Made by a program: the position numbers and the translations under genes. The notes beneath the pieces are model-generated. The model was not told the origin of the DNA, did not search any database, and was given only the letters and a program-made list of their open reading frames with translations. From assembly GCA_046704085.1 (NCBI GenBank), contig JBJKSJ010000038.1, positions 1,116-65,115 on the forward strand: DNA of 64,000 nucleotides, read 5' to 3'. Origin of the DNA: Ktedonobacterales bacterium. Lineage in GTDB: Bacteria; Chloroflexota; Ktedonobacteria; Ktedonobacterales; DATBGS01. Shown piece by piece: positions 48,280 to 56,685 of the stretch; positions within the stretch are counted from its first letter, which is position 1; each line of letters begins with the position of its first letter.

Positions 48280-48296
48280 ATGTATCAAAAGATGTA
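48280..48296 (+). promoter_or_regulatory. Copy 1 of the conserved 17-nt motif (A/C)TGTATCNAAAGATGTA
   Basis: The plus strand reads ATGTATCAAAAGATGTA. It lies 111 nt upstream of the glucose-dehydrogenase-like start (48168, minus strand). Confidence 0.6.
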
Positions 48297-48426
48297 GTTC
48301 TGGCCTCTGTTCCATTGCCGCTCCGCTTGCCATCTTTCTTGAACCATTGGCCTGGACCAGAGGGGAGCTTTCCGCGTCACGACGGAGTTCGTTCACTCAG
48401 GAGGAGTTCTCATATCTGGAGGCTCG

Positions 48427-48443
48427 TACATCTTTTGATACAT
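48427..48443 (-). promoter_or_regulatory. Copy 2 of the conserved 17-nt motif (inverted)
   Basis: The plus strand reads TACATCTTTTGATACAT, the exact reverse complement of copy 1. It lies 16 nt beyond the stop of the PLDc_N gene. Confidence 0.6.
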
Positions 48444-48459
48444 ACTGTCTGACTCTTCC

Positions 48460-48750
48460 CTAGTGAGGAACACTTCCGCCTTCGATTGCTTTCCTGACGC
48501 GCTGTTCGTCTACTGCCTGTCGCTCCTGCATCTGCCTTTCCCAGGAAAGTCTTGAAGGTCTGGCAATCAGATAGATCAGCGCACCGAGCAGCGGAAAACA
48601 GATCACCCCCAGCACCCACAGAGCCTTTTTCCAGCCGACCAGATCGGGGCGTTGGATCAGATCCATCAAGACGGAAATCCAAAGAACCGTCACTGGAACC
48701 ACTATCAGGAAGAACCAGAAGAGCAGCCAGAACCAATCCCAAAACCGCAT
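48460..48750 (-). CDS. PLDc_N-domain small membrane protein
   Basis: GGAGAG Shine-Dalgarno. Two TM helices with the hallmark loop DLIQRPDLVGWKKALWVLGVICFPLLGALIYLIARP. Confidence 0.7.
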   Translation of the reverse strand: MRFWDWFWLLFWFFLIVVPVTVLWISVLMDLIQRPDLVGWKKALWVLGVICFPLLGALIYLIARPSRLSWERQMQERQAVDEQRVRKAIEGGSVPH

Positions 48751-48901
48751 CAGTTCTCTCCATTTCCAGGATGGGCCGCCATGACAGTGTGATTTTCACC
48801 TTGTCGGCCATCTGAGTATGGCCTTTGGGCAGGAGTACACTGGGCGAGGTGAGTCCCGCGATAATCACACTGAAAGGATACCCTTGCCTGTGAGGTTTTG
48901 C

Positions 48902-55900: not shown

Positions 55901-56167
55901 GCGCTCCAGCGTGAGTTCTTCCGTAGCTCCCAGGTCCACTGTAAGACTCCGATTTCCTTGCCGGAGCGAGGCGCTCCAGAACCAGGCGCCTGAACGCTGC
56001 TGTTTACGAGCCGTAAAGCGACCTCCAGCGCCGTGATAGGCAAAGAAACGAGCCGTTTTCAGCCAGGCAAACCACTCAGCAGAACCAACCGGCAGAGAGC
56101 GCGTCGCACCAGCATCGTCACGCTCCACCAAGAGTCCCTCAGAAATGACAGGCAGCAGATGCCTCAT
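52973..56167 (-). CDS. MalT/LuxR-type STAND ATPase transcriptional regulator
   Basis: ORF 52973..56392 trimmed to ATG 56167 ([11 protein letters not shown]). Walker A [12 protein letters not shown], Walker B [9 protein letters not shown], a long TPR-like helical region, and C-terminal LuxR [48 protein letters not shown]. Confidence 0.85.
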   Translation of the reverse strand: [1064 protein letters not shown]

Positions 56168-56551
56168 TTGAAGTCCCTTCCATAGGCAACACACAAGGAA
56201 TGCGGGCAACAACACTTCGAGCGATGGAGAGGAGCGTATCCCTCCTATTCTCTGGCGTCCCAGCAAGCTACATTTCATCAATACTATCTCTGGTCTTGTG
56301 TAAGAAGACCATGCTCTTCGGACCGAAATGGTGATTGCTGCATAGAGTATGCCTTTACATGTGCTGATGAAAGGCAGGAAGTTCATAAGCATTCTGAACT
56401 GACCGAGACCTCAGGTTTCATTGGCCGCTGCGGTAAGTACACCTGGGTTCAGTCCACTCCGGGTACTCTCACTCTGCGGTTGATGAAGGTCATCAGCATC
56501 GCAACGATGAGGAACGGAGAGGCTATCACGCTCCCCCCTTCTCCAGAACAC

Positions 56552-56568
56552 CTGTATCTAAAGATGTA
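56552..56568 (+). promoter_or_regulatory. Copy 5 of the conserved 17-nt motif
   Basis: The plus strand reads CTGTATCTAAAGATGTA. It lies 384 nt upstream of the STAND/LuxR regulator start (56167, minus strand). Confidence 0.6.
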
Positions 56569-56668
56569 TTTTGCTGCTCGTTCCCTCTTGCCAGAGACGC
56601 CCAAACCGCGCGCCAGGCAACAATGCCTGCCCTGGCGCCAGCGGTTCTGCTGCTACTGCGCCGAGGAA

Positions 56669-56685
56669 TACATCTTTGGATACAT
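56669..56685 (-). promoter_or_regulatory. Copy 6 of the conserved 17-nt motif (inverted)
   Basis: The plus strand reads TACATCTTTGGATACAT. It lies 306 nt upstream of the CMD-family gene start (56992, plus strand). Confidence 0.6.

Follow-up and report, generated by a model that had tools for sequence, protein, structure and literature searches.

A 17-nt intergenic element of a Ktedonobacterales genome as a predicted activator site of the adjacent MalT-like STAND/LuxR regulator

In class II activation by the quorum-sensing regulators LuxR and TraR, the lux or tra box is 18-20 bp long and centred near position -42.5, and MalT-dependent promoters carry additional upstream sites in either orientation. 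The promoter-proximal copy of the MalT box abuts or overlaps the -35 region (cited in PMC7567727). The closest precedent for the locus described here is the system of ACSP50_3915, a MalT-like activator of Actinoplanes sp. SE50/110 that activates a local region of 51 genes devoid of maltose genes (PMC7567727). For this regulator, a 17-bp motif, TCATCC-N5-GGATGA, has been proposed upstream of 17 mapped transcription starts, with the 3' end of the motif located 34.4 +/- 1.0 nt from the start and overlapping the -35 region; the motif recurs by the orthologous regulator in related genera in which the gene order differs (PMC7567727). Here, we analyze a 17-nt element that is present in six copies in a 64-kb stretch of a Ktedonobacterales genome (GCA_046704085.1, contig JBJKSJ010000038.1; hereafter, the window), next to a gene encoding a MalT-like STAND/LuxR protein.

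Ktedonobacterales genomes encode many regulators of this type, none of which, to our knowledge, has a defined binding site, and none surfaced in a literature search. It appears likely that the element is a DNA-binding site for an activator, located at approximately -51 to -35 of weak promoters that lack a -35 element, with the neighbouring MalT-like protein as the most probable candidate for this activator. A preliminary description of the window had proposed a shared operator or activator site that defines a local regulon tied to this regulator. The present analysis supports that proposal and narrows the generic operator to a class II activator site, on the strength of the fixed spacing between the element and a TAnnnT hexamer, the lack of -35 elements, the conservation of the element at an orthologous locus, and the diverged versions found beside other regulators of the clade. 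The locus is a further example of a known arrangement and reveals no novel regulatory mechanism or principle.

A search with the pattern MTGTATCNAAAGATGTA returned exactly six matches in the window, at 48280(+), 48427(-), 48902(+), 51883(-), 56552(+) and 56669(-), against a mean of 0.00 matches in 100 dinucleotide-preserving shuffles, and no further copy was found in the window when 3 mismatches were allowed. When scored with a weight matrix derived from the copies, these attain 31-40 bits and the next best position of the window 9.4 bits, so that the distribution of the element in the window is sharply bounded, all-or-none. The plus-strand form of the element is (A/C)TGTATCNAAAGATGTA and the promoter-oriented form is TACATCTTTNGATACA(T/G), which reads TACATC..GATACA; the copies are labeled s1 to s6 in coordinate order, each read in the latter direction (Table 1). 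The six positions and sequences, the strict alternation of orientation and the lack of chance or additional full copies all agree with the preliminary description, and the half-site ATGTATCGAAA that it had placed near 6706 is indeed present at 6705-6715, but inside an open reading frame (ORF). According to the ORF listing and the Pfam assignment, all six copies are intergenic, as had been claimed, and fall into the gaps 48169-48459, 48751-48931, 51683-51995 and 56168-56976. Alignment of the copies with 170-nt flanks yielded the core (A-rich)TACATCTTTNGATACA(T/G)(G) and no conservation beyond it. Within the element, the previously noticed direct repeat with a 12-bp spacing, ATACAT-N6-ATACAT, is perfect over its 6 nt, and the element is also an imperfect dyad (5/7), ATnnATC-N4-GATnnAT. 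The observation that five of the six copies face the nearest start codon, namely those of the glucose-dehydrogenase-like (GDH-like), PLDc_N, HtrA-like protease, STAND/LuxR regulator and CMD genes, holds as well. The orientation of the copies alternates because the target genes are laid out divergently, and it also reflects the presence of inverted partner sites.

Table 1. Copies of the 17-nt element, diverged counterparts at other regulator loci, and genes at the locus. Offset, position of the TAnnnT hexamer in nt past the 3' end of the element
Feature	DNA	Coordinates	Strand	Description
s1	window	48280..48296	-	TACATCTTTTGATACAT; faces GDH-like gene; -10-like TATAGT at 48252-48257 (-), offset 22
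s2	window	48427..48443	+	inverted partner of s1 across a 130-bp gap; lacks a -10-like hexamer at the expected offset
s3	window	48902..48918	-	TACATCTTTCGATACAG; faces PLDc_N gene; -10-like TATCCT at 48875-48880 (-), offset 21
s4	window	51883..51899	+	faces HtrA-like protease gene; -10-like TACCCT at 51921-51926 (+), offset 21
s5	window	56552..56568	-	TACATCTTTAGATACAG; faces regulator gene; nearest TAnnnT is TAGCCT at 56520-56525, offset 26
s6	window	56669..56685	+	TACATCTTTGGATACAT; faces CMD-SHOCT genes; -10-like TATATT at 56708-56713 (+), offset 22
Predicted s1 target	window	47038..48168	-	Zn-dependent GDH-like oxidoreductase
Predicted s3 target	window	48460..48750	-	small PLDc_N membrane protein, 96 aa
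Predicted s4 target	window	51996..52919	+	HtrA/DegP-like trypsin-fold serine protease without PDZ domains
Predicted s6 target	window	56977..57846	+	CMD/AhpD-like protein (probable ATG 56993), then SHOCT-domain protein (57391-57846)
GH63/MGH1-like gene	window	48932..51682	-	glycoside hydrolase; between s3 and s4
Candidate cognate regulator	window	52973..56167	-	1064 aa; MalT-like STAND ATPase, WHD_MalT, TPR_MalT, C-terminal GerE/LuxR helix-turn-helix
Element copy	L002	13803-13819	-	64 nt upstream of PLDc_N orthologue (73% identical)
Element copy	L002	13850-13866	+	1 mismatch; inverted, 30 bp from the first copy, directed into the 3' end of a convergent gene
Element copy	L002	15656-15672	-	113 nt upstream of Asp23 operon
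Diverged element	L004	2741-2757	-	TCCGTCTTTCGGCTCAT; TATATT; faces GAF histidine kinase gene
Diverged element	L135	4210-4226	-	TTCATCTTTCGACGCAT; TACACT; faces PAS-domain sensor protein gene
Diverged element	L136	9500-9516	-	TACACCTTTGGGAGCAT; TACAGT; faces single-domain response-regulator operon
Diverged element	L137	9468-9484	-	TACACCTTTGGGAGCAT; TACAGT; faces single-domain response-regulator operon

The closest homologue of the regulator (P0002; 59% identity) is encoded in the Ktedonobacterales genome GCA_036557285.1, and its locus, taken with 10-kb flanks (L002), contains the element three times, in each case at most 3 kb from the regulator gene. The only target common to the window and L002 is the PLDc_N gene. 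In both genomes, an inverted copy is aimed at the 3' end of a convergent gene: s2 points into the end of the PLDc_N gene and is probably an auxiliary site, and the corresponding L002 copy is followed, at the right offset, by a good TACACT hexamer that overlaps the stop codon of the convergent gene, so that this copy could drive an antisense transcript.

Most copies of the element are set at a fixed distance from a presumed -10 hexamer. In an ungapped stack of the nine copies (six from the window and three from L002), TAnnnT begins 21-22 nt past the 3' end of the element in seven, the L002 copies La, Lb and Lc being followed by TACACT, TACACT and TAGGCT, respectively. The frequency of TAnnnT in the window is 0.5% of positions, and when nine 70-nt windows were drawn at random 20,000 times, no two adjacent offsets together accounted for more than 4 of the 9 sequences. 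The six bases at the would-be -35 position show no conservation across the stacked copies, and a consensus promoter scan for canonical TTGACA-N16-18-TATAAT promoters in 47900-57100 detected 0 against 4.9 expected. If the hexamer is the -10 element at -12 to -7, the element would span approximately -51 to -35, with its centre at about -43, which would place it as a class II activator site rather than a sigma-factor -35 box, because a -35 box located anywhere within the element would be separated from the hexamer by no less than 22 nt.

The same geometry bears on the alternative that the element is an unusual -35-type box of promoters read by an alternative sigma factor, with no dedicated activator involved. 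The fixed spacing to a -10-like hexamer would suit such a box, as would the stress-type character of the facing genes, which resemble general-stress regulons, Asp23 and PLDc_N included. Nevertheless, this alternative appears improbable: the spacers of the sigma-70 family are about 16-19 nt long, but the 17-nt block stops 21-22 nt before the hexamer, so that a sigma-70 -35 box within the motif is rejected; the copies cluster by one regulator gene and change along with its paralogues, unlike a genome-wide sigma factor; and the element is missing where Asp23 orthologues are encoded in other Ktedonobacterales. A sigma-54 promoter was rejected given that the motif contains no GG/GC pair, and an UP element was rejected because specific C/G positions of the motif, among them C3, C6, G11 and C15, are invariant.

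The protein that we consider to be the activator shows the full STAND-LuxR architecture, comprising a NOD ATPase, a MalT winged-helix domain, a MalT TPR-like sensor and a GerE/LuxR helix-turn-helix, and is encoded beside the sites. Pfam searches identified AAA_16/AAA_22/NACHT, TPR_MalT (1.6e-52) and GerE, the last at about residues 970-1064, and WHD_MalT was taken from precomputed annotation; the solved MalT structure, PDB 8bob, matches at 7e-51. The NCBIfam MalT model aligns from end to end (model positions 2-895 of 903 with residues 133-1037, E 7e-125) at a score of 418 bits, which is under the 537-bit equivalog cut-off. The ATG at 56167 was taken as the start, and not that of the longer ORF from 56392, because the homologues begin there and the database copy consists of 1064 aa. 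More than 4,500 homologues were found across public genomes and metagenomes, the closest named ones in Ktedonobacterales, and a search of reference-genome contigs with the regulator detected no close relative. An extra N-terminal region of about 130 aa (window 55780-56167), with motifs including SAEWFAWL, is shared with the homologues P0003 and P0004, but is missing in the 59%-identical orthologue P0002; the N-terminal 143 aa match no Pfam family even at E <= 1, and some homologues of the regulator show a weak match to DUF6788.

Beyond these close orthologues, the loci of regulators with 38-42% identity hold elements with the skeleton TnCnYCTTTnGnnnCAT, followed by TAnnnT at an offset of 21-22. 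These diverged elements are intergenic, adjoin the regulator gene and are directed at the divergent neighbour; two of the loci, L136 and L137, are orthologous, and in L135 the element has an inverted partner 29 bp off, in the same geometry as the L002 pair. When the skeleton with at most 1 mismatch together with the hexamer was used as a filter, 4 matches were found in ~65 kb of regulator loci versus 1 in 899 kb of unrelated DNA. A second skeleton match in L004 (287-303) was dismissed as a chance occurrence, given that there is no -10 hexamer at the right offset. Thus, motif and regulator co-occur and co-vary at L002, L004, L135 and L136/L137. In the recognition-helix region, TVKRH is kept in all compared regulators and the residues right after it vary, an arrangement that would be compatible with a fixed skeleton combined with variable specificity positions, although the relation between skeleton and recognition helix is a correlation only. 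The genes that face the predicted operators in these loci encode signalling proteins, namely a GAF histidine kinase (L004, 1172-2596), a PAS-domain sensor (L135, 1167-4007) and a single-domain response regulator followed by a Crp-type regulator (L136, 8829-9260), which hints that STAND regulators of this clade often sit atop other signalling modules.

We also weighed the possibility that another nearby transcription factor binds the element, either the KdpE-like regulator (57919-58713), in a head-to-tail arrangement on the direct repeat, or the NarL-type regulator (38508-39173). Both response regulators are encoded in the window, the perfect 6-nt repeat would suit tandem binding, and TACATCT resembles the TACYYMT-like heptamers that regulators of the NarL family recognise. 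However, no gene for a response-regulator DNA-binding protein is located within 10 kb of the L002 copies, and the genes called in L004 and L135 include no DNA-binding regulator of the OmpR or NarL type, even if L136 and L137 do carry Crp-family helix-turn-helix and receiver-only genes; the STAND/LuxR gene is the only one that always accompanies the element. OmpR/PhoB-family sites usually have a period of 10-11 bp, so that the 12-bp repeat period is atypical for the family, and together with the restriction of the KdpE-like gene to the window (the gene calls of L002, L004 and L135 do not include it), it sets the element apart from an OmpR/PhoB box. The NarL-type gene lies ~10 kb from the nearest copy. 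Overall, binding by another factor seems unlikely, and so, in particular, does the KdpE-like partner that had been suggested for the motif, because no such gene accompanies it elsewhere.

The assignment of the element to the MalT-like regulator allows a mechanism to be proposed. If the protein acts like MalT and its Actinoplanes counterpart, a signal together with ATP would cause the STAND module to oligomerise, after which the C-terminal LuxR-type domains would occupy the 17-nt sites and recruit RNA polymerase to promoters that the polymerase could not use alone. Local genes of a stress or envelope type would thereby be switched on: the GDH-like gene, which may be co-transcribed with the pyridine nucleotide-disulfide oxidoreductase gene at 45570-46991, and the PLDc_N, HtrA-like protease and CMD-SHOCT genes. 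Inverted partner sites (s2 and perhaps s5) would probably add cooperativity. The promoter role of s5 itself is uncertain, because the nearest TAnnnT occurs at offset 26; alternatively, this copy may assist s6, from which it is separated by a 100-bp gap, as an inverted partner, in the way that s2 is presumed to assist s1. The suggestion that the regulator controls its own gene accordingly retains some ground, in that one copy faces this gene, but is weakened by that offset and by the 385 nt that separate s5 from the start codon; moreover, no copy of the element lies upstream of the orthologous regulator gene in L002. Autoregulation through s5 alone is possible, if weakly supported.

Several observations weigh against the proposed role of the element. 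The predicted regulon can be called local only with respect to the 64-kb window, and other DNA-binding regulators, the NarL-type and the OmpR/KdpE-like ones mentioned above, are encoded in that window. All positions relative to transcription starts derive from the -10-like hexamer, which two of the nine copies, s2 and s5, lack at the expected offset, and s5 is the very copy that would confer autoregulation. The sequence of the element matches the E. coli MalT box, GGGGA(T/G)GAGG, only in the GATG core. Among the regulator loci, L138, which belongs to the same clade, shows no skeleton element. Finally, the exact motif is confirmed in two genomes only, with a probable third: in a Chloroflexi groundwater genome (L030, JACQWQ010000219.1), a 22-mer identical to s4 is found at 5981-6002(-), with TATAGT at offset 21; a gene for an apparently secreted 501-aa protein follows 283 nt downstream, and no regulator is visible near this copy within the 8 kb available.

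The narrow distribution is also apparent from larger comparisons. Exact-pattern scans with ATACATCTTTNGATACAKG detected 39 single matches in 596 Gb of reference genomes, where ~35 are expected by chance, and 83 in a metagenome collection; almost every match fell in conserved coding sequence or in an unrelated organism, often an AT-rich one, only the L030 match looks genuine, and neither scan revealed any multi-copy spread. Six homologues of the PLDc_N protein were found, and at the locus of the one with 77% identity (L127, 978 bp) the element is reduced to the half-site GATACATG. At the Asp23 orthologue loci of other Ktedonobacterales (L128-L134), the element was not found, and therefore regulon membership is not conserved. 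Footprinting of orthologous loci, which had been recommended as a check, thus gave a divided result, with the element kept beside the L002 regulator and the exact sequence failing beyond the two genomes. Judging by these comparisons, the exact sequence is confined to a narrow lineage and membership in the predicted regulon shifts quickly. The Asp23 operons of other Ktedonobacterales share a different upstream block, GCAGTGGCAYAAAAGCTGCAACAAACGGTGYC (L129, ~9840-9900, with equivalents in L130, L132 and L133), which suggests a separate, wider promoter or operator of the Asp23 operon; in L002, the motif of the MalT-like regulator occupies the place of this block.

A broader generalization can be put forward only tentatively. 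It holds that the N-terminally extended MalT-like regulators of Ktedonobacterales and other Chloroflexota share a clade-wide operator code, in which the skeleton TnCnYCTTTnGnnnCAT would be located at -51 to -35. Changes at the variable positions would track those in the recognition helix TVKRH-x-N/S-x, the regulons would undergo rapid rewiring, and inverted partners, in part with a -10 hexamer of their own directed into a convergent gene, as at L002 13850-13866, would drive antisense transcripts. Examples of such rewiring are the PLDc_N gene as the sole target shared by the two genomes, Asp23 captured in one of them, and sensor kinases elsewhere. If this code is real, although we would give it somewhat less than an even chance, the regulons of a large, wholly uncharacterised family of regulators would become predictable from sequence.

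In view of the alternating orientation, the copies had also been considered as targets of site-specific inversion, and terminal inverted repeats of small mobile elements would look similar. The copies form three inverted pairs, which enclose 130 bp (s1/s2), 2964 bp (s3/s4) and 100 bp (s5/s6); this and the drop in GC content to 0.53 at 48-52 kb, against a window average of ~0.60, could be read in favour of such an explanation. This explanation is very improbable and, with regard to inversion, we reject it. No integrase, invertase or transposase domain is encoded in the ~20 annotated ORFs between ~35.7 and 63.8 kb. The gaps within pairs vary (130, 100, 30 and 29 bp), with the L002 pair, at 30 bp, too close to invert, and the single copies s3, s4 and Lc behave as the paired ones do. 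The conserved -10-like hexamers fall beyond the segments that would be inverted, visual comparison of the two short pairs reveals no obvious resemblance between their interiors, and conservation around the six copies is limited to the core. The two large collection scans revealed no multi-copy spread either, and a miniature inverted-repeat transposable element was rejected on similar grounds, namely the lack of a transposase domain, the varied gaps, the conservation of the core only and the chance-level single matches in the scans.

Several other features of the locus deserve mention. The GH63/MGH1-like gene is located exactly between the oppositely oriented s3 and s4 without a site of its own, that is, with no copy upstream in the correct orientation, in the segment (48000-52000) where GC content falls to 0.53 versus ~0.60 elsewhere in the window; this gene may be an insertion into a former divergent pair of sites. 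The leaders that follow from the predicted promoters extend over an unusual length, about 270 nt in the case of the CMD gene (56720-56992) and about 350 nt in that of the regulator gene (56168-56515), and a terminator-like hairpin is present in the CMD leader at 56820-56836(+). Rfam gave no match at E <= 1 in 47900-57100, and the fold of the CMD leader (56720-56995) is no more stable than those of shuffled sequences (z = -0.69); a structured RNA or riboswitch was rejected, given the lack of both a curated RNA family and a stable fold.

Elsewhere in the window, cydAB, encoding cytochrome bd oxidase (35728-38221), adjoins the NarL-type response regulator gene and a HisKA_3 kinase gene (39145-40479), and a divergent GAF-PAS histidine kinase gene is found in the same neighbourhood (40687-43062); this layout (35728-43062), in which no copy of the motif occurs, recalls the DosR/DevR-type hypoxia modules. 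On the other side, 57919-61213 encodes the KdpE-like response regulator and a KdpD-like kinase (DUF4118, GAF, HisKA, HATPase) in which Pfam detects neither the N-terminal KdpD domain nor a Usp domain; kdpFABC was not found among the neighbouring ORFs scanned, and an ABC permease and an NMT1-type binding protein are encoded downstream of the pair.

The significance of the locus lies in the combination of a precise predicted operator and clean promoter geometry with a short list of targets and a skeleton that seems transferable to paralogues. Such a combination could serve as an entry point for regulon prediction and for the design of inducible promoters in a phylum for which genetic tools are almost absent, and it would be the first defined, if predicted, operator for a large uncharacterised family of Chloroflexota regulators.

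Among the described systems, LuxR and TraR resemble the present one in that a GerE-type helix-turn-helix protein would act at a site of similar length, centred near -43, that replaces the -35 hexamer. The lux and tra sites, however, are true palindromes bound by a dimer of proteins with a ligand-binding domain, whereas here the asymmetry of the site and its orientation to the -10 hexamer are conserved and the regulator is a STAND ATPase. With MalT of E. coli and Klebsiella, the regulator shares an alignment over the full length and would share, in the predicted geometry, a proximal site that abuts or overlaps the -35 region, as well as further upstream sites in either orientation. It differs in that only the GATG core is common to the two boxes, in the 418-bit score against the 537-bit equivalog cut-off, and in the predicted targets (oxidoreductase, PLDc_N, protease and CMD/SHOCT), among which there are no mal genes; for these three reasons, a bona fide maltose activator MalT acting at a MalT box was rejected. 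The differences from the ACSP50_3915 system are more limited. The element here, TACATCTTTNGATACAT, is AT-rich and asymmetric, with a 4-nt spacer, as opposed to a perfect palindrome with a 5-nt spacer; the host belongs to Chloroflexota (Ktedonobacterales) as opposed to Actinomycetota; the predicted regulon consists of 5-6 promoters compared to 17; the regulator has an extra N-terminal domain; and activation, which was established by knockout in Actinoplanes, is inferred here. The likeness extends over the arrangement as a whole: in both cases, a MalT-type STAND/LuxR regulator is encoded inside the block of genes that it controls (or, in the present case, is predicted to control), a 17-nt motif recurs in the promoter regions of nearby non-maltose genes of mixed function, the 3' end of the motif is located (or, in the present case, is predicted to be located) at nearly the same distance from the transcription start (34.4 +/- 1 nt there and, by our estimate, ~34-35 nt here), and the motif is kept beside the orthologous regulator in related genomes even as gene content varies.

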